Below, piece after piece: positions 29,266 to 50,720 of a DNA stretch of 64,000 nucleotides. Made by a program: the position numbers and the translations under genes. Source of the stretch: Spirochaetia bacterium. GTDB taxonomy: Bacteria > Spirochaetota > Spirochaetia > UBA9216. The notes under the pieces were generated by a model that saw only the letters and a list, made by a program, of their open reading frames with translations, was not told where the DNA came from and ran no database searches. The stretch covers positions 3,520,001-3,584,000 of the forward strand of contig OY776510.1 of the NCBI GenBank assembly GCA_963675665.1, in the 5' to 3' direction. The stretch's first letter is position 1. Each line of letters opens with the position of its first letter.

Positions 29266-31506
29266 TCAGCTGCACCTTGAATAACCGCAGTTAAAACATG
29301 TAATGCAGCCGTCAGCATATGTCAGTTGCTGATTGCACTCCGGGCATATTCCGTCCGATGTTATTACTTCTTCACCGTCATGTATATATTTCTTCAAGAC
29401 ACGGGCAACACTGCGTTCAAAATCTGTAAAGTTTGTATCTTTCTGCAGCTGGGTTATTACAAACTGCAAAGGCGTTCCGTGACGCAGCGCCATTGAGATG
29501 AAACGCGCAAGTGAAGAATTCGGCGAATCGAATTCTTTTGTAAAATTTTTAAGCCTTATTTCTTCTTCACCATTAATAAACACCAGATCATAACGGCCGG
29601 AAGGTTCTTTTCTTACAACAGTACGATGATCAGTTTCAATATCTATCCTTGATTCCGGGTCATCAATAACGAAAAGTTCATAAAGGCTGTTTTTCATTTT
29701 CCCGACAATCACTATGATGCTTTTTCGGCCTGCTTTGACTCTGTGAATATCACACGGCAGTTCTTTCGGCCTTGTAGGCGCATGATGAGTGTGTATTGGC
29801 TCTTCCTTGTCCTTGTTCTGATATTCAAGGATACCTTTCATGCTTCCGTTTGGATTGAATGTGGTAAATCCTTTAAGTCCCCTGTCGTATGCATACATAA
29901 ACAGGTTCTTGTAATCATCAAAACTTGTATCTTCAGGCAAATTCAGTGTTTTGGAAATACTGTGATCAATGTATTTCTGAAAAGAAGCCTGGATATCGAT
30001 TGAGTCGTACGGATCTATATTCTGAGTGGTTACAAAATATTCAGGCGCATCGTCTTTCCCGGTAATCTCACGGTATAATCCGTAAGCATAGTCATGGACT
30101 TCCTCGGTTACTGTTTCATCACCTATACCAGTGCGGATAGTTCTGTTGTACTTCAGGGCAAAAATCGGTTCTATGCCGGATGAACAATTCTGTCCCGCCG
30201 AAAGTGAAGTTGTACCGGTAGGCGCAATTGTATTCATCTGTACATTGCGTATTCCGTTTTTTGATATCAGCAGACGGACCTGTTCAGGAAGCTGTCTGAC
30301 AAATTCAGCAGCTAAATATTTTTCTTTATCAAACTGCTCAAAGGCGCCTTTTTCCGCTGCAATCCCGGCTGATGCAGTATATGATTCGTTTCTTAAAGTC
30401 AGCGCAATTTCTTCAGAGAATTCTTTTGATTCATTTGAACCGTACTTTATACCCAGCATTGTAAACATATCGCCAAGACCGGTTATTCCGAGCCCGATTC
30501 GCCGCCACTGTTTTGAAAACTTTTTTATTTTTTCAATAGGATAATCGGTGACATCAAGTATATTATCCAGAAACCTGATACCGACATTTACCGTGGAAGC
30601 GAATTTTCTAAAATCAAATGAAGCCTCCGGTGTAAAAGGGTTATCCACAAACATGGTTAAATTCACAGCAGAAAGACAGCACAACGAGTAGGGCGGCATA
30701 ACAAGTTCACCGCATGGATTAACCCTGTCCATCTTAAACGCCCAGTACCCGTTGTTGTATCTTTCTACAGTATCTGCGTAGAATATTCCGGGCTCATTAT
30801 GGTTATAGGCATTCCTGGCAAGCAGATCATAAAGATACCTGGCTTTTACCGTTTTATATACTTTGTCTCCAAAAATAAGGTTCCAGTCTTCATCATTTCT
30901 TACAGCTTCAATAAAATTGTCTGTTACCTTTATTGATATATTGAACTGGGTCAGCTCCTTGTTGTCATCGCCTTTTTTTACCGTAATAAAATCTTCAATC
31001 TCTGGATGCGAAATATCGAGCAATGCAATATGCGCCGATCTGCGCTGCCCCCCGGTCATTATTGTTTTCGCTGACTGATCAAAAATCTTCAGAAAAGATA
31101 TTACTCCCGATGATTCGGAACCGCTGGATAGCGGCGCCCCTTTGGGGCGCAGTTTTGAAATATCAAAACCGACTCCGCCGCCCATTTTACTGATGGCGGC
31201 ATCTTCCTTAAGAGATTCATATATTCCTTCCATTGAATCTTCTATATCGATTGTAAAACAGTTATTATAATTCTTCATTCTGCTTTCGGGTCTTGCATTG
31301 GCAAGAATTCTGCCTGCAGGAATCAGTCTTCCGTTTAACAGTTCCTCAAAAAAAAACTCGCTCCACTGTTCCTTTTTTTCTTCAACTGAAGCTGCTTCCT
31401 CCGCTATCAACCGGAAAACCTCCTCGGGACTGTTTTCTCCATGAAGGCAGTATTTGGCTTCAAATATTTCACGGCTTATTTTCTGTTTCCATTTCCATTT
31501 TTGCAT
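29266..31506 (-). CDS. nrdJ: Ribonucleotide reductase, class II (B12-dependent) type
   Basis: PAGRILAN, NCF, GGGVG, NPCGE, IAPTGT, SSGIEP, C-terminal Zn ribbon; no beta subunit nearby; GGGAGG SD. Confidence 0.85.
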   Translation of the reverse strand: MQKWKWKQKISREIFEAKYCLHGENSPEEVFRLIAEEAASVEEKKEQWSEFFFEELLNGRLIPAGRILANARPESRMKNYNNCFTIDIEDSMEGIYESLKEDAAISKMGGGVGFDISKLRPKGAPLSSGSESSGVISFLKIFDQSAKTIMTGGQRRSAHIALLDISHPEIEDFITVKKGDDNKELTQFNISIKVTDNFIEAVRNDEDWNLIFGDKVYKTVKARYLYDLLARNAYNHNEPGIFYADTVERYNNGYWAFKMDRVNPCGELVMPPYSLCCLSAVNLTMFVDNPFTPEASFDFRKFASTVNVGIRFLDNILDVTDYPIEKIKKFSKQWRRIGLGITGLGDMFTMLGIKYGSNESKEFSEEIALTLRNESYTASAGIAAEKGAFEQFDKEKYLAAEFVRQLPEQVRLLISKNGIRNVQMNTIAPTGTTSLSAGQNCSSGIEPIFALKYNRTIRTGIGDETVTEEVHDYAYGLYREITGKDDAPEYFVTTQNIDPYDSIDIQASFQKYIDHSISKTLNLPEDTSFDDYKNLFMYAYDRGLKGFTTFNPNGSMKGILEYQNKDKEEPIHTHHAPTRPKELPCDIHRVKAGRKSIIVIVGKMKNSLYELFVIDDPESRIDIETDHRTVVRKEPSGRYDLVFINGEEEIRLKNFTKEFDSPNSSLARFISMALRHGTPLQFVITQLQKDTNFTDFERSVARVLKKYIHDGEEVITSDGICPECNQQLTYADGCITCFNCGYSRCS

Positions 31507-31517
31507 CGATCCTCCCA

Positions 31518-31533
31518 ACACTATATATAGCGC
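31518..31533. promoter_or_regulatory. NrdR box
   Basis: ACACTATATATAGCGC fits acaCwAtATaTwGtgt; immediately upstream of the nrdJ SD. Confidence 0.75.
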
Positions 31534-31596
31534 ATTTTACAATAATTTTATGGTTTGACCACTATATAACATATCGGTTGTCATGTTAATACAATA

Positions 31597-33951
31597 TTAG
31601 CTTTTTTTTATATAATGGGAAAATTTCTCAGTCAGCCATTTGAAAAGAAACACCGGGGCAAAGAATACAAGAACCAATCCTGCAACAGAAGCAACGGCGT
31701 TATCCATACCGAAAAGCGAAAGTGAAAATGACGGGAAGGGGTTATCATCTATCAGATAAGTCCATGTGCTTCCGTTTTTCCGTTTTTCGGCTTCAGAGAA
31801 CGCAGCATCAAGTCCTGATTGTTTTATATGGAAAACAGTCTTCTCAACAGCTTTATTGAAACCTTCTGAATAGTAAACCTGGGCATCACGAATATACTCG
31901 ATAAGCGGCTCCTTTTTCCCCAGTCTTCTTAGATGAATGCCTTCCCGCAGGATTTCAATCCAGTCAAGAAATTCTGTCCAGAATTCATCCAGGTAAAATG
32001 CATATACTTTCGCAAGCTTTTCAGCGTACTCGCCCGGTTCCGCAATATTTTCAAGCTGATCAAGAATTTTCTGCGGAAAAATATGGGAAAAAAGAGCATC
32101 TTCCCGATCTTTCAAAAGGTTCTTTCTCATTACTTCTACAGCATGCGAATAATTATGCAATGTTTCTCTCATTTTTGAATGCTGGTTTTCGATAATTTCC
32201 TGAGCACGTTCAAGTTCCCGGCCGGCACGATGGTCGGCCAGCGGCTTATCGTCAGAAAACTTCAGAATCTTTTCCGGAATAAATTCCGCTATGCCGTATC
32301 TTTGAAACAGTCGGTCTTCAAGACTTACAAGAAAAAGGCTTTCGCCCGGATCTCCCTGACGGCCCGCTCTGCCGCGCAACTGATTATCAATACGCCGGCT
32401 TTCGTGCCTGTTAAGGCTGATAACAATTAAGCCGCCCAGGCTGGTAACAAAATCTTCATCAACACGTTCGGGCCCGCCCAGCAAAATATCAGTGCCGCGG
32501 CCGGCCATATTTGTCGAAACAGTTACGGCGCCGGGCATCCCTGCATCGGCAATAATAACAGCTTCTTCGGCATCATTAACTGCATTAAGCACATTATGTT
32601 TTATACCTTCCGCCAGAAGCATTTCAGATACATGTTCAGATTCATAAACCGAAGCCGTGCCTATCAAAACCGGGCGACCGACAATATTATATTGCTTAAC
32701 CTTTTTTAGAAACTCGGTATATTTGGCTGCTTTTGTTTTATAAATAAGATCGGGATTATCTTTTCTTATTTTCTGCATATGCTCAGGAATAATAAATGTT
32801 TGCATTCCATACTTTTTATAAAATTCTAACGCAGCAGATTCTGCTGTTGCAGTCATTCCTGAAATATTCGGGTAAAGTTTGACGAAATTTTCAATTGTTA
32901 TGCTTCCGCATATTTCTCCGTTATTATTTATACTCAATCCTTCCTTGGCTTCCAATGCCCGCTGTATTCCGAAAGGCCATTCTCTTTTTTCAGCAACACG
33001 GCCGGTCAGTTCATCAACGAGCTCGATTTTATCTCTTCTGACGATATAGTCAATATTCCTGGAAAGAAGTTTTTCAGCATGCAATGCCACATTTACTCCT
33101 GCAACGGCATCCTGACCCTCAGGAGTTATTTCATCAACATCCAGTATATTGCAAATATGTTTTATTCCTTTTGATGTCAATGTACACTTTCGGCAAGTTC
33201 GATTAATTTGAAAATCTGTGCCGTCTTCAAGTTTATGGACTAATGACTCATAAAGAATGTGCCCGGCAAGTAAACCGTCTTTCTCTCTGGCAATAACAAG
33301 AGGAATTCGTGCTTCATCAATCAGAATGAAATCTGCTTCGTCTACAATGCAGTTTTCAAACCGTATATTAATTTTCAGTTTTTTGTTATACTGTATACAG
33401 TCGTTAAGATAATCAAAACCTGCCTGTTTGGCTGTAAGATATACAACATCAGCACGGTAGGCGGTTCTTTTCTCTTCAAGAGTCATTTTTTCATCAACAT
33501 AAGCGCAGTTTATTCCCAGTATGGAGTAAACTTCACCCATCCACATCGCATCACGTTTGGCAAGATATTCATTGGCTGTAAATATTGCAGTATGGGCTCC
33601 GTCTGCGGCATTAATAACAGCCGGAAAAACAGCAGCAATCGTTTTGCCTTCACCTGTTTCCATTTGTACAAGATTTTTTTCAAGCATTATTTTTCCGGCA
33701 ATTATCTGTTCAGAATAGGGTTGAATTCCGAGTGCCAGATTAACTGCTTTATTTATTGCAGCAAATTTTTCAGTCAAACTGCCGTTTGACATGTATTTTT
33801 TTATTACTTTTTTTGAGTTAGATGTAATTTTAATCGATTTTACTTTTTCCGCAAAATCAACATAATTCTGTAAATTAATATGTATGGGGATTCCCTTTGC
33901 ACGTTTGAGGGCATAATTCAACTGCTCTCCTGTGCTGTATCTGTTTTTCAT
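31597..33951 (-). CDS. secA2: SecA paralogue (SecA2-like, short, hydrophobic C-terminal tail)
   Basis: METGEGKT, NEYLAKRD, IVDEAD, TNMAGRGTDI, RHESRRIDNQLRGRAGRQGDPG. Confidence 0.85.
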   Translation of the reverse strand: MKNRYSTGEQLNYALKRAKGIPIHINLQNYVDFAEKVKSIKITSNSKKVIKKYMSNGSLTEKFAAINKAVNLALGIQPYSEQIIAGKIMLEKNLVQMETGEGKTIAAVFPAVINAADGAHTAIFTANEYLAKRDAMWMGEVYSILGINCAYVDEKMTLEEKRTAYRADVVYLTAKQAGFDYLNDCIQYNKKLKINIRFENCIVDEADFILIDEARIPLVIAREKDGLLAGHILYESLVHKLEDGTDFQINRTCRKCTLTSKGIKHICNILDVDEITPEGQDAVAGVNVALHAEKLLSRNIDYIVRRDKIELVDELTGRVAEKREWPFGIQRALEAKEGLSINNNGEICGSITIENFVKLYPNISGMTATAESAALEFYKKYGMQTFIIPEHMQKIRKDNPDLIYKTKAAKYTEFLKKVKQYNIVGRPVLIGTASVYESEHVSEMLLAEGIKHNVLNAVNDAEEAVIIADAGMPGAVTVSTNMAGRGTDILLGGPERVDEDFVTSLGGLIVISLNRHESRRIDNQLRGRAGRQGDPGESLFLVSLEDRLFQRYGIAEFIPEKILKFSDDKPLADHRAGRELERAQEIIENQHSKMRETLHNYSHAVEVMRKNLLKDREDALFSHIFPQKILDQLENIAEPGEYAEKLAKVYAFYLDEFWTEFLDWIEILREGIHLRRLGKKEPLIEYIRDAQVYYSEGFNKAVEKTVFHIKQSGLDAAFSEAEKRKNGSTWTYLIDDNPFPSFSLSLFGMDNAVASVAGLVLVFFAPVFLFKWLTEKFSHYIKKS

Positions 33952-34015
33952 TACTGCTCCCGGGCTTTAATTAATCTTTAGAGTCTTTATCAAGTCTTTT
34001 AACAGGAACAGTATG
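33949..34015 (-). promoter_or_regulatory. Translation-attenuator hairpin occluding the secA2 SD/AUG
   Basis: mRNA CAUACUGUUCCUG pairs with CGGGAGCAGUA-AUG. Confidence 0.65.
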
Positions 34016-34223
34016 GCGGGGCCCTTGTGTTTATATATATTGGAGATTCTTTCTTTCCGTAATAATTTTGGACAATTCCAGTTGCTGAAACAATCAATGC
34101 AAATAGAATGATGAAGATACCTGGTACCTCAGCATTAATACCGGAAACAGTTAACAGCATAATGACCAGAATTATTGCGGTAATAATTTTAATTATTTTT
34201 GAATGATGTATTCCGACCGGCAT
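33999..34223 (-). CDS. Membrane leader peptide with a C-terminal RAPP ribosome-arrest motif
   Basis: Two hydrophobic segments, then ...SPIYINTRAPPYCSC*; 47 nt upstream of secA2. Confidence 0.75.
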   Translation of the reverse strand: MPVGIHHSKIIKIITAIILVIMLLTVSGINAEVPGIFIILFALIVSATGIVQNYYGKKESPIYINTRAPPYCSC

Positions 34224-34355
34224 ATTATAAAATTAAACATTATATTCCGGGACCGTCAAGAAAAATATCCTTAAATTATGAATGAATATATGAAAGAATA
34301 AAAAATCGACGTATCGGGAAGTGATATGTTAAAATACATATAACGGAGGTAAAAG

Positions 34356-34742
34356 ATGAAAAAGCTTACGCAATATCTTGCATCAATCGGTGCTGATAAT
34401 TATTTTAACGAGATGCGCCTTTCGATAAACGAACTTTTTCTCAGCGATGATATTGAAATAAATCCTTACACCGAACATAACTGGGAACTTCGTAAAAATA
34501 AAGATGTTACAGTCGTAAATGCTATTCCGGACAGTGAAAAACAGGACAGGCTTTTCTGGGAAGAGTGGTACATATATCAAAATGAGGTTCATCACCACAT
34601 TCTTACAATCTGGAAACCGGCAACTTATAATGATATTTTCGACTGCCCCGAATCAGATGATATTCATCCAGAAGCCAGTTTCGGCAAACGCTGGTATGTT
34701 ATTGACGATCCTGACATGACGCCGCTGCTTCTGAGGAGATAA
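34356..34742 (+). CDS. Hypothetical protein
   Basis: GGAGG SD; 128-aa Trp/His-rich ORF. Confidence 0.7.
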   Translation: MKKLTQYLASIGADNYFNEMRLSINELFLSDDIEINPYTEHNWELRKNKDVTVVNAIPDSEKQDRLFWEEWYIYQNEVHHHILTIWKPATYNDIFDCPESDDIHPEASFGKRWYVIDDPDMTPLLLRR

Positions 34743-47612: not shown

Positions 47613-50600
47613 ATGAAGCTTTCCGATTATTCAATCAAGCACCCGGCTGTTATTACCATTCTACTTGTTATGATCTCAGTTTTCGGAGTAATAGCAATAC
47701 GGAATACAAACCAGGAAGCTTTTCCTCCAATGGGACTTCCGGGAGCTTCTGTATTGACCGTATATCCCGGAATAGGTTCCGAGTTCATGGAAATTGAGGT
47801 TACCAGGCCTATTGAAGATGCGCTGTCCGGTGTATCCGGTTTAAAAGGACTCAGCTCTTCTTCAAAAGATTCAGTTTCAGTCGTGTCGGTAGAATTCCGG
47901 GACGGTGAAGATGCATATTCCAAACTTCCCGAAATAAGGGAAAAACTCAACTCTGTATCGGATACTTTGCCGGAAGGTATTTCAGGAAATCCCGAAATCT
48001 TCATCCATGATGCGGGCTCCTTTCTTCCTATTTACACGTTAATGATCAAGAGCAGCCTGCCGGATGAAGTTTTTTCTTCATTCATTGAAGAAGATTTCAA
48101 ATCCGGAATTACAAGAATTGACGGTGTTTCAAACGTTAACATATACGGTGGAAAAGGCCGGGAACTCGAAATAAAAATTCATCTTGATGAACTTGAAACC
48201 AGAGGTCTTGCCGTACTTGATATATTCACCATGCTTCAATACTACAACATATCTCTTCCTGCCGGCACTGTAGGTTATCTCGGAAGAAACATTAATATCA
48301 GAACATCCGGTGAATTCACCAGCATAGATGAAATTGAGAACCTTGTTATAGGAAATAAGGGCTCATCTCTTATTTACCTTAAAGACGTTGCGGATATCGG
48401 GTTTACAGAGAAACAGCCTGATTCCTATATAAGATCTGAAGGCGAAGATGCAATTCTGATTGATATCATGAAACGGGAACAAGGTAATACAATTGATATC
48501 ATAAACGCTGTTGATAAGCTTATAAACGATACAAATCAACGATTTCCCGGCAAACTTGAATTTCATGTTGTTACAGATCAGAAGGAAAGAACCGAACTTA
48601 CAATCAATACAGTCATACAGACGGCGCTTACCGGAATCATTCTTGCAATCCTGGTCATATATATCTTCCTGCATGATTTTCGAAGCACCATTATTATCGG
48701 GCTTTCTCTGCCCATATCAATTTTAATTACTTTTATCGGAATGTACCTTACCGGAACTACCATAAATATGTTGAGCCTTTCGGGAATAACCGTTGCAATC
48801 GGAATGATAGTAGACAGTTCGATAGTAGTTCTCGAAAATACCAGCAGGCATTCCTCCGAAGGCAAAACCCCGGAAACGGCCGCCTCGCTCGGGGCAGGAG
48901 AGGTCGGCGGCGCAGTCCTTGCTTCTGCGACAACTTCCATATGTGTTTTTCTGCCGATGGCTTTTCTATCCGGTGTAATCGGAATTATTATGAAGGGGCT
49001 TTCTTTGTCTATCGTATTTGCCCTTGGTTCTTCCGCTCTTGTTTCGGTTATAATTGTACCTTATCTTTCAGCTATCTTTCTAAAAAAAGAACCGAAACAC
49101 ATCAGGGGGCTCAGTACATTTCATAACCTTATAGAAAAAGCTCTTCAGGCCCTCACCAATTCATACCGGAAGTTGTTGTCCAAAGTTTTACGCAGACCTG
49201 CCGTTATAATTCTTACGGCAATAATTGTTCTTGCACTGACAGTAGTTCTGGTTTCCCGTCTGGGAATCAGTTTCCTTCCGCCCACCGATACCGGAGAAAT
49301 AGAATTTGATATTAGAACTCCCCAGTTTTACAGTCTTGAAGAATCACGGGGCAAGGCGGATGAAATAGACGCCATGTGCCGCGAACTTGTTCCCGAACTG
49401 GCAACTTCTGTATTTCAGGTAAACAACGACGGAACTATTACAGGTAAAATTCGACTTGTTAAGTCCGGAGAACGCGAACGTTCTGTTCAGGATATAATAA
49501 AGATTCTGCAAACTACTCTTAATAATGAAATCACAGATACGGAAACGATAGTAGTCAACGGCGGTTTTGATTCACTGCTGGGCATGGCAACCGGGGGGCA
49601 GGGATTTAAAATAAGACTTTACGGCAGCAATCTTGATGATATTATGAAGGAAGCTGAAAAAATCAACAGTTTTCTTGAATCCGACCGTGAAGTTATAAAA
49701 ACACAAATGAGCATGCGTTACGGGAAAGAGGAAATAGTATCCAACCTGATGCTTGACTACATGGGAAATCTGGGCATTACTCCCTATGAGGCTGCAATAA
49801 CTTCAAAGATTTTCTTCAGCGGGCTTGAAGCCGGCACCTTCAGGTTTGAGAATAAAAACTACAGCATGAAGCTTACTTCCGACATAGCAGGTCAGGAAAT
49901 AAACGAGGATACCATCAGTCTTATTAATATCAAAACTGCATCCGGTAAACCTGTCAGTATGACCAGCCTGACAGAGCTTGAAAGAAAACCTGCTGTTTCA
50001 GTGATTAATAAGCAGAACAAGACCATTTCGCTTACAGTCACAGCCCATCTGAACACTCTTGATCAAATTGAAATTACATCGAGAGTAGATGACTTCATGA
50101 AAACCCGGGAACTGCCTTATGGGCTGTCATGGGAAATAGGAGGGACATCAAGCCTTGTCAGCGAATCCTTCTCCTCATTATTTCTTATTCTCGGAATTGC
50201 TGTATTTCTTGTTTATTCGGTAATGGTAATACAGTTTGAAAAATTCGTTCAACCTGTAATAATTATGCTGTCAATTCCGTTTTGCCTGATAGGAGTAGTA
50301 TTGGGCCTGATTATATTCGGATCAATAATATCAATTATCCCCATGCTGGGTGTTATATCCCTGGCCGGAATAGTAGTTAACAACGGTATTGTACTGATAG
50401 ATTATATCAACCTGATAAGAAAAAGGGATAAACTGGAACTTTCTGAAGCGGTAATTACAGGTTGCACAGCCAGACTCAAACCGATAATGATGACTACTCT
50501 TACTACTTTTTTCGGGGTCCTCCCAATGGCATTCGCCGGAGGAAACGGTTCTGAAATATACGCACCCCTCGGACAGGCAATAGCAGGAGGGCTTATTACT

Positions 50601-50720
50601 TCAACCTGTCTGACTCTTTTTCTTATACCTGCGGTTTATAAAATTATTGAAGAAAAAGCGCTCAGTAAGTCTCCGGCGTCATCGCCTCAAAAGCAGCCCG
50701 AACTTCATAAAGACGGTTAA
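47613..50720 (+). CDS. RND efflux permease (AcrB family)
   Basis: GMIVDSSIVVLEN, ARLKPIMMTTLTT; 1035 aa. Confidence 0.95.
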   Translation: MKLSDYSIKHPAVITILLVMISVFGVIAIRNTNQEAFPPMGLPGASVLTVYPGIGSEFMEIEVTRPIEDALSGVSGLKGLSSSSKDSVSVVSVEFRDGEDAYSKLPEIREKLNSVSDTLPEGISGNPEIFIHDAGSFLPIYTLMIKSSLPDEVFSSFIEEDFKSGITRIDGVSNVNIYGGKGRELEIKIHLDELETRGLAVLDIFTMLQYYNISLPAGTVGYLGRNINIRTSGEFTSIDEIENLVIGNKGSSLIYLKDVADIGFTEKQPDSYIRSEGEDAILIDIMKREQGNTIDIINAVDKLINDTNQRFPGKLEFHVVTDQKERTELTINTVIQTALTGIILAILVIYIFLHDFRSTIIIGLSLPISILITFIGMYLTGTTINMLSLSGITVAIGMIVDSSIVVLENTSRHSSEGKTPETAASLGAGEVGGAVLASATTSICVFLPMAFLSGVIGIIMKGLSLSIVFALGSSALVSVIIVPYLSAIFLKKEPKHIRGLSTFHNLIEKALQALTNSYRKLLSKVLRRPAVIILTAIIVLALTVVLVSRLGISFLPPTDTGEIEFDIRTPQFYSLEESRGKADEIDAMCRELVPELATSVFQVNNDGTITGKIRLVKSGERERSVQDIIKILQTTLNNEITDTETIVVNGGFDSLLGMATGGQGFKIRLYGSNLDDIMKEAEKINSFLESDREVIKTQMSMRYGKEEIVSNLMLDYMGNLGITPYEAAITSKIFFSGLEAGTFRFENKNYSMKLTSDIAGQEINEDTISLINIKTASGKPVSMTSLTELERKPAVSVINKQNKTISLTVTAHLNTLDQIEITSRVDDFMKTRELPYGLSWEIGGTSSLVSESFSSLFLILGIAVFLVYSVMVIQFEKFVQPVIIMLSIPFCLIGVVLGLIIFGSIISIIPMLGVISLAGIVVNNGIVLIDYINLIRKRDKLELSEAVITGCTARLKPIMMTTLTTFFGVLPMAFAGGNGSEIYAPLGQAIAGGLITSTCLTLFLIPAVYKIIEEKALSKSPASSPQKQPELHKDG

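Follow-up and report, generated by a model that had tools for sequence, protein, structure and literature searches.

RAPP-type arrest peptides are, to our knowledge, the most widespread of the known nascent-chain sensors of protein export. Among them, the genes for ApdA and ApdP precede secDF. The mechanism of the RAPP stall has been described for these two proteins (PMC10951233; this and the other published work is cited from the sections accessible to us). The related literature further recognizes the RQH family, small upstream open reading frames (uORFs) that combine a localisation signal with an R/Q/H-A/G-P-P/G motif and lie upstream of secA or secDF; it comprises 19 order-level groups plus orphans from nine phyla, every tested member stalled ribosomes in vitro, and the signature of the class is that nothing in the peptide besides the motif is conserved (PMC10987492, Fujiwara et al. 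2024). The strongest arrest, which is refractory to EF-P, comes from RAPP and RGPP, and RSPP is in part permissive; proteomes, those of Spirochaetota included, are strongly depleted of all three motifs (PMC12992588). The accessible main text of the RQH survey does not mention spirochaetes, and in its supplementary file 9 there is a single Spirochaetota row, 'uA_RQH_Treponematales' (orphan = TRUE), along with orphan RAPP uORFs before SecA2-annotated genes in two Acidobacteriota orders (PMC10987492). Here we report a locus from a spirochaete (Spirochaetia bacterium, assembly GCA_963675665.1, contig OY776510.1), found in a stretch of 64,000 nucleotides (nt; positions 3,520,001 to 3,584,000) that we call the window, in which a short uORF ending in RAPP directly precedes the gene for an accessory SecA. 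By its sequence this locus is most likely a RAPP-type arrest-peptide leader, a kind of element that is already known, and one member of its own family has been catalogued as an orphan.

The uORF encodes a product of 74 residues whose C-terminus reads ...KKESPIYINT-RAPP-YCSC-stop, and its end is separated by 47 nt from the ATG of the SecA homologue (Table 1). A preliminary description, drawn up from the letters of the window, had reported this frame, its RAPP codons and the 47-nt gap, and all of these proved correct. The product matched no Pfam or NCBIfam family, a sequence search of 60 related genomes found no homologue (best foreign E = 0.009, a chance-level value), a collection of 5.8 billion proteins contained no match, and Rfam matched nothing in 33700-34500. 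On this evidence the family is recognisable through its position and motif only. The genome contains 56,862 frames of 40 residues or more; 19 of them have R[AGS]PP within their last 14 residues, and the window uORF is the sole strongly hydrophobic one among these 19, which excludes a chance origin of its motif. A frame in the window that terminates in RGPP at about 50512 on the plus strand is an alternative frame within a 1035-residue transporter-like gene (47613..50720) and was judged to be a chance occurrence.

Among 61 relatives, 7 have the SecA paralogue, and a sample of 401 genomes drawn from the whole class contains it in 12, which represent ten genera; the window's own genome is part of both counts. 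Eleven of these loci could be compared, namely that of the window (L034), L035-L037, L039, L040 and L064-L068, L038 starting inside the gene and having no upstream DNA. A small hydrophobic uORF with R[AGS]PP placed 2-5 residues before the stop (counted from the second Pro) lies directly upstream of the paralogue in 11/11, a count that must be tempered by the kinship of the loci, which are not eleven independent events. The endings other than that of the window are RGPP-SRFL, RGPP-VLR, RGPP-VFS, RSPP-RA, RGPP-LTPAI, RGPP-IL, RGPP-LHA, RGPP-LNS, RSPP-QR and RAPP-LC. Among 778 stop-to-stop frames of at least 35 residues in the same loci, 12 have R[AGS]PP in their last 16 residues and 11 of these are the uORFs, leaving a background of 1/767 in the other frames. 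Outside the motif the orthologous peptides share no sequence, even between genera, and therefore selection appears to keep the motif and its place. The flanking genes, too, are not conserved outside the genus, from which it follows that the conserved unit is the uORF together with secA2. The preliminary description had proposed an arrest-peptide leader of an accessory SecA and had named the retention of RAPP upstream of orthologous secA2 genes as a check; the proposal is supported by the recurrence of the uORF and of R[AGS]PP at every locus with upstream DNA, and from motif and architecture we infer the stalling, its force-dependent release and the induction of the SecA gene.

The same comparison bears on two further explanations. 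According to the first, the frame, the motif and the stem described below would be chance features of an AT-rich intergenic region. This agrees with the absence of the uORF gene from protein collections and with the folding of the region 33930-34040 (111 nt) as RNA, which showed no unusual stability (z = -1.09; 29 of 200 shuffles folded as well). However, the design recurs in all the orthologous loci across a GC content of 37-68%, set against the two background frequencies given above, and in light of these comparative counts the explanation can be regarded as refuted for practical purposes, its residual probability being minute. According to the second, the 74-residue product would serve the SecA2-like ATPase chiefly as a small functional subunit in the membrane or as its receptor, with RxPP as a structural or binding motif. 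The strict pairing of the two genes, which are inherited together as a unit, and the predicted membrane location of both products would fit such a role, which is also compatible with an arrest function. Against it, the peptides retain nothing besides RxPP from one genus to the next, RxPP belongs to the tetrapeptides that proteomes avoid most (PMC12992588), and many members of the same SecA2-like clade lack such an ORF. A close relative, X4 (contigs from a public run), which is about 95% identical over the whole stretch compared (27 differing letters and a 12-nt gap in 545 nt), is also telling: its uORF remains open despite 14 substitutions, 10 of them non-synonymous, which is unlike a partner with a conserved interface. 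We accordingly regard a dedicated subunit as distinctly improbable. In X4 residues 60-71 (SPIYINT-RAPP-Y) are unchanged and Cys72 has become Tyr; to judge from this pair of sequences, the peptide evolves fast and the motif is fixed.

The candidate leader also has a consistent architecture. A hydropathy scan found comparable hydrophobic blocks in all eleven peptides, whose division into helices and N-in/C-in topology we read by eye. In the window peptide the scan returned a single block, residues 9-51, ending 18 residues before the P-site Pro69; the end of its first helix lies about 42 residues before the same Pro. The placing of basic residues, at the N-terminus and again behind helix 2, points to an N-in/C-in hairpin. 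The orthologous uORFs are 67-78 residues long when the start codon ahead of the first helix is taken, with the block at about residues 7-54 and the first Pro of the motif at residue 64-74. From the end of the block to the P-site Pro there are 14-22 residues in 10/11 loci, the exception being L037 with one predicted helix 37 residues from that Pro, and helix 1 ends 35-39 residues ahead of it in the loci whose two helices can be told apart. Given this position of RxPP relative to the helices, a paused ribosome would hold helix 2 in the exit tunnel with helix 1 outside. The traits by which RQH members have been recognised are largely seen here: a small uORF with no assigned function immediately before a sec or yidC gene, an N-terminal signal or transmembrane segment (the block itself), and a C-terminal (R/Q/H)-(A/G)-P-(P/G), present as R[AGS]PP throughout. 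The motif is RAPP in 2 loci, RGPP in 6 and RSPP in 3, the RSPP members lying outside the strict A/G set. The spacer of more than 30 residues is found when it is measured from helix 1 and not when it is measured from helix 2. Several peptides have a second, weaker Arg-x-Pro near the end of helix 2 (for example RHAPP in L064, TRAPAAP in L065, ARAPAAP in L066 and PRSPA in L068), and these extra elements may, from their sequence, act as auxiliary pause sites.

Table 1. Features of the uORF-secA2 locus, in window coordinates
Feature	Position	Strand	Basis
SecA paralogue, 784 aa, SecA2-like (ATG at 33951)	31597..33951	-	Pfam SecA_DEAD, P-loop_SecA, SecA_PP_bind, SecA_SW
C-terminal hydrophobic tail, ~residues 752-773, and basic end; putative tail anchor	31633..31698	-	sequence
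uORF, candidate RAPP-type arrest peptide (monitoring substrate), 74 aa (34223..33999, ATG at 34223)	33999..34223	-	ORF and translation
RAPP codons AGG GCC CCG CCA (R67 A68 P69 P70)	34014..34025 (34025..34014)	-	read from sequence
First hydrophobic helix, ~residues 9-27	34143..34199	-	hydropathy block split by eye at loop GINAEVPG
Second hydrophobic helix, ~residues 35-51	34071..34121	-	hydropathy scan, split by eye
Stem 5' arm UACUGUUCCUG (34013..34003)	34003..34013	-	6-16 nt downstream of first P-site nt, within stalled footprint
Stem 3' arm CGGGAGCAGUA (33962..33952), holds Shine-Dalgarno GGGAG (33961..33957) of SecA paralogue	33952..33962	-	RNA fold
-35-like hexamer TTGACG, putative uORF promoter	34254..34259	-	read from sequence
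-10-like hexamer TAATTT, ends 6 nt before ATG	34230..34235	-	hexamer search

The second component of the proposed leader is a stem that would hide the SecA gene's Shine-Dalgarno (SD) sequence. In the 111-nt fold mentioned above the two arms form 11 contiguous pairs, two of them G-U, in both the minimum-free-energy and the centroid structures. The hairpin of the preliminary description is thus predicted as far as these pairs and the burial of GGGAG are concerned; the further pairing into the AUG that it had included is missing from the predicted fold. For the stalled ribosome we took a footprint from -12 to +15 of the P-site nucleotide, after the toeprints of ApdA and ApdP, which lie 15-17 nt from the first P-site nt (PMC7897499); with this footprint held single-stranded the paired fraction of the window SD falls from 0.62 to 0.37. 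For the 18 nt that begin with the first Pro codon, the duplex formed with the SD window has a predicted energy of -17.2 kcal/mol in the window, as against means of -9.5 kcal/mol for shuffles of the arm (0.6% as low), -12.6 kcal/mol for synonymous recodings (12.6% as low) and -7.3 kcal/mol for other 18-nt windows of the uORF (6% as low). Classical covariation of the stem is not possible because the intergenic regions of the eleven loci, 23-90 nt in length, cannot be aligned between genera, and hence the duplex energies were used instead. The mean SD-footprint pairing probability is at least 0.3 in seven loci (0.50, 0.37, 0.33, 0.45, 0.42, 0.61 and 0.53), and forcing the footprint to be single-stranded clearly lowers SD pairing in L034, L035, L037, L040 and L067 and modestly in L065. 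Summed over the eleven loci the duplex energy is -115.0 kcal/mol, compared with a mean of -92.6 kcal/mol for arm shuffles (1/500 as low) and -90.4 kcal/mol for synonymous recodings (0/500), though the apparent complementarity is inflated, since Pro-Pro codons are C-rich and pair with an SD by composition, a bias that the shuffle control corrects only in part; in several loci the anti-SD is made by the Pro-Pro codons themselves (CCUCC-like).

Apart from this compositional effect, several results weigh against such a switch. The SD-footprint pairing is 0.21-0.26 in two loci and 0.05-0.13 in two others, and forcing the footprint to be single-stranded does not lower SD pairing in L036, L039, L064, L066 and L068. 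Taken singly, only L034 and L037 fall below 5% of the shuffles and only L035 and L037 below 5% of the recodings, and the duplex of L039 is worse than its controls. In X4 one G-C pair of the stem has become an uncompensated A/C mismatch, which raises the duplex energy from -17.2 to -12.4 kcal/mol; one G-U has become A-U, and the stem is still predicted. The preliminary description had named conservation of the stem as a further check, and the outcome is divided, with significant footprint/SD complementarity in the pooled loci and a clear signal in only about half of them. On these models the SD-sequestering stem is a recurring principle, supported by the pooled loci and clear in roughly 5-7 of the 11, rather than a conserved structure, and the loci that show no clear SD pairing may use another route.

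These features of the stem also lend themselves to a simpler account, in which RxPP would be a fixed constitutive pause, or the stem would be opened by termination, such that the two genes are translationally coupled with no response to membrane insertion. The final codons of the uORF contain the stem's 5' arm, so that any terminating ribosome would open the stem, and in L036, L039 and L065 the partner of the SD is situated just past the stalled footprint, where a terminating ribosome could reach it. Yet coupling of this type has no need for a conserved two-helix block, nor for the constant spacing between RxPP and that block in 10/11 loci. Moreover, RAPP and RGPP arrests are long-lived and EF-P-refractory in the systems tested (PMC12992588), and a stall that is never relieved would sequester ribosomes. 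We therefore consider plain coupling unlikely, if somewhat less so than a subunit role, and prefer a regulated arrest.

Upstream of the uORF, the elements of a promoter are placed such that the mRNA probably begins at or very near the start codon. The window has the geometry TTGACG-18 nt-TAATTT-6 nt-ATG, the same-genus L035 has TTGACG-17-TAGTTT-7-ATG, and there is no SD upstream of the window uORF ATG. The end of a TANNNT hexamer precedes the chosen start by 5-8 nt in 10/11 loci (6-8 nt in these); the loci together contain 2591 ATG/GTG, of which 119 (4.6%) are so preceded. This contrast is somewhat inflated because the start was picked among 2-4 visible candidates in six loci; the one locus that departs from the pattern is L039, with TAGAAT 15 nt upstream of the start. 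Thus, the TTGACG promoter and leaderless transcript that had been suggested for the window gain comparative support as predictions, and the arrangement suggests a leaderless or nearly leaderless uORF mRNA. No RNA sequencing run was listed as containing the locus. Immediately next to the uORF ATG stands a perfect TATAAT (34224-34229, minus strand), 24 nt away from TTGACG. Transcription directed by it would begin within the ORF, and to judge by its sequence it may represent a competing or alternative -10 element. On the far side of the 132-nt intergenic region that would contain this promoter lies a divergent ORF of 128 residues (34356-34742, plus strand), which has a good SD and matches no Pfam or NCBIfam family.

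The gene downstream of the uORF is best described as SecA2-like. Its highest-scoring NCBIfam model is TIGR04221 (SecA2_Mycobac), at 601.5 bits and under the curated cut-off of 725, and it remains below the curated cut-off of every NCBIfam SecA/SecA2 model. A canonical SecA (a 947-residue open frame) is encoded about 390 kb away in the single-contig genome of 5.15 Mb, which makes the window gene the paralogue; no RxPP uORF lies upstream of the canonical secA. Alignment of the two revealed a wing-region deletion in the paralogue and the absence of the Cys-rich tail in which the canonical protein ends. A second SecA that accompanies the canonical one, is shorter and has no C-terminal Cys-rich tail is what is understood by SecA2, and the window protein has these properties. 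All full-length spirochaete orthologues show an N-terminal 'YAL.RAKGI.I..DL..Y' signature and the wing-region deletion, and end in TWTY-LI(N/D)DNPF (TWTY-LIDDNPF in the window), about 20 hydrophobic residues and a basic Arg/Lys-rich end. The wider clade has 74 members, and 58 of them, from Spirochaetota, Acidobacteriota, Bacteroidota, Bacillota and Myxococcota, carry the hydrophobic tail; the Nocardia SecA2-like proteins are without it and end soon after the shared motif. In the accessible literature on SecA2 in spirochetes or with a C-terminal transmembrane segment we found no description of a tail-anchored SecA2. On the other side of the paralogue, a gene for a class II-type ribonucleotide reductase large subunit (29266-31521, minus strand; Pfam Ribonuc_red_lgC/lgN) starts 75 nt after it; this neighbour recurs only in the same-genus L035, and a promoter-like site (31589..31561) is located between the two genes.

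To place the spirochaete loci in a wider setting, species-representative genomes were scanned with the C-terminal region of the paralogue, which yielded 80 loci. Eight of these carry Spirochaet- titles and are genomes already among L035-L040 and L064-L066, adding no further cases; the remainder are mostly Acidobacteriota, with Aminicenantes, Bacteroidota, Bacillota, Myxococcota, Actinomycetota and others. A hydrophobic R[AGS]PP uORF precedes the gene in 18 of the 77 loci with a defined upstream boundary, these being 8/8 spirochaetes, three Aminicenantes, four Acidobacteriota, one entry labelled Bifidobacteriaceae and two unlabelled ones. Three further matches of the R[AGS]PP expression were out of place and were discarded by eye. 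In a FastTree phylogeny of 74 rows (nine truncated or odd-length frames having been dropped, and with compositional heterogeneity flagged), the paralogue groups with Nocardia SecA2-like genes against canonical SecA, and the ten spirochaete proteins form one clade with an SH-like support of 100, every one of them with the uORF. Basal branches next to this clade have the uORF as well, and it is missing from a large derived group of Vicinamibacterales; as a label on the tree, the uORF changes 5 times versus 17.6 in shuffles. This distribution fits co-inheritance of the uORF and the paralogue with losses, as read from a quick tree, unrooted bar one outgroup, which does not prove a single origin.

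The derived group just mentioned, comprising Vicinamibacterales and other Acidobacteriota (L071-L114), has no hydrophobic uORF upstream, and from the sequences this looks like a lineage-specific loss. The uORF is present in a basal Acidobacteriota member, L100, and likewise in a Vicinamibacterales entry of the published table. A scan of metagenomes with a single N-terminal domain gave no matches; repeated with an alignment, it gave 80 loci, mostly high-GC SecA2-like genes with no uORF, and a hydrophobic RxPP uORF in 6 of the 74 with enough upstream DNA. On one metagenome contig (L175) a hydrophobic uORF ends ...LRSCAPPAR, with Cys in place of the Arg of the motif and an Arg three residues earlier, which may be a degenerate or variant form of the motif.

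Based on the above, we propose the following course of events. The promoter would set the start of transcription at or next to the ATG, giving a leaderless mRNA, the first ORF of which would be translated into a 74-residue N-in/C-in two-helix membrane peptide. With R67-A68-P69 on the ribosome and Pro70-tRNA in the A site, peptide-bond formation would be blocked in a RAPP arrest, at which point helix 1 would have left the exit tunnel and helix 2 would still be inside it. That the ribosome stalls here is to be expected from the motif and the architecture, by analogy with ApdA and ApdP. The stalled ribosome would cover the 11 nt that otherwise pair with the GGGAG SD, and the SecA2-like gene would be translated for as long as the stall lasts. 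Targeting and insertion of helix 1 would then pull on the nascent chain and release the stall, the force acting, as the architecture implies, from about 42 residues away from the peptidyl-transferase centre. Upon release the last four codons would be finished, the stem would re-form and synthesis of SecA2 would drop. The net effect would be to raise the level of a tail-anchored SecA2-like ATPase when the capacity for membrane insertion or export becomes limiting.

Taken as a whole, this model of an insertion-sensing RAPP cassette controlling a SecA2-like gene seems to us probable; we are more confident of the arrest peptide as such and less so of the exact SD switch, and both the switch and the pathway that is sensed are ones we infer. 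Further to the points raised on the stem, it is to the model's disadvantage that a scan for sigma-70 consensus promoters and terminators did not list the window uORF promoter, that most of the Acidobacteriota relatives have no such uORF, and that two more distant SecA2-like genes from other Spirochaetota classes (2 of 400 further genomes) have none either. A more far-reaching version, which we put forward as a speculation, is that the RxPP sensor, leaderless and with two helices, and the SecA2-like ATPase with its tail anchor constitute one ancient, co-inherited and autoregulatory cassette of single origin, in which the stall with helix 2 in the tunnel reports on an insertion route served by SecA2. 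Conceivably, then, Spirochaetota, Aminicenantes, Acidobacteriota and a few others would share this cassette and some lineages would have lost it; the peptide, on the same tentative footing, would have diverged fully except for RxPP and its geometry. If true, this would mean a single origin, contrary to the repeated de novo emergence favoured in the literature.

More generally, the window locus extends RAPP-type arrest peptides to a whole clade of spirochaetes, and the strict co-inheritance of uORF and paralogue bears on whether such peptides arose once or repeatedly. The link to an uncharacterised and apparently membrane-anchored SecA2-like ATPase provides a handle on when the paralogue is needed, and the compact, probably leaderless family is well suited as a minimal system in which to study force-sensitive arrest while a helix is inside the tunnel. 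Gene callers and earlier size filters overlook such peptides; as products of this length with an 18-residue tail escape those size and spacer filters, the class may far exceed its catalogue.

Finally, the locus can be set against the described systems. Whether its family had been catalogued was left open in the preliminary description, and the answer is that the class is known as RQH and that one Treponematales orphan is listed in it; among the supplementary rows searched (PMC10987492), the window tail and five orthologous tails have no entry, one match being an unrelated Pseudomonadales peptide. The listed orphan, uA_RQH_Treponematales, is likewise a 74-residue RAPP uORF, from a Spirochaetota metagenome-assembled genome, and lies 56 nt before an 801-residue SecA homologue that is annotated as hypothetical and whose N-terminus bears the 'AL..AKG.PI..DL' signature as in the window paralogue; its RAPP, too, stands close to the stop, 1 residue before it. 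It differs in its listing as an orphan, with fewer than three ORFs in the order, and the accessible text neither tests nor discusses it, whereas the window design is general for the spirochaete clade of the paralogue. With ApdA and ApdP the window peptide shares the R-A-P-P core near the C-terminus of a small protein, an N-terminal localisation signal and a place upstream of a sec gene. In contrast, those proteins were chosen as having 80-200 residues with a hydrophilic domain of at least 40 (PMC7897499), as opposed to 74 and 18 in the window; no sequence relationship was detected, the two not having been compared directly, and the downstream gene in the window is a SecA paralogue.

The preliminary description had called the system SecM-like, and this holds for the regulatory logic by analogy: in the SecM-secA system of Escherichia coli, too, an arrest peptide precedes secA, the stalled ribosome opens an SD stem and release comes via the localisation machinery (PMC10987492), as we would predict for the window. 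It does not hold as homology, as the FxxxxWIxxxxGIRAGP motif of SecM is absent from the window C-terminus ...KKESPIYINTRAPPYCSC, which has neither W-I nor RAGP. SecM also has a cleavable signal peptide where the much shorter window peptide has two membrane helices, and the window system, whose mRNA is probably leaderless, would regulate an accessory SecA2-like paralogue with a tail anchor. MifM, which acts on yidC2 of Bacillus subtilis, is likewise a membrane-anchored monitor with a short and narrow distance from helix to arrest site (PMC10987492), which is 35-42 residues from helix 1 in the window family; unlike the latter, it has another arrest sequence with no Pro at the A/P site, a single helix, and a YidC paralogue as its target. 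The other secA uORFs have long, variable spacers (PMC10987492), and by this comparison the narrow, short distance of the window family resembles MifM more closely than it does them. Relative to all these systems, three features appear to be new: the uORF is strictly linked to a SecA2-like paralogue with a tail anchor, its start is predicted to be leaderless, and its compact layout of two helices would leave helix 2 in the tunnel at arrest.

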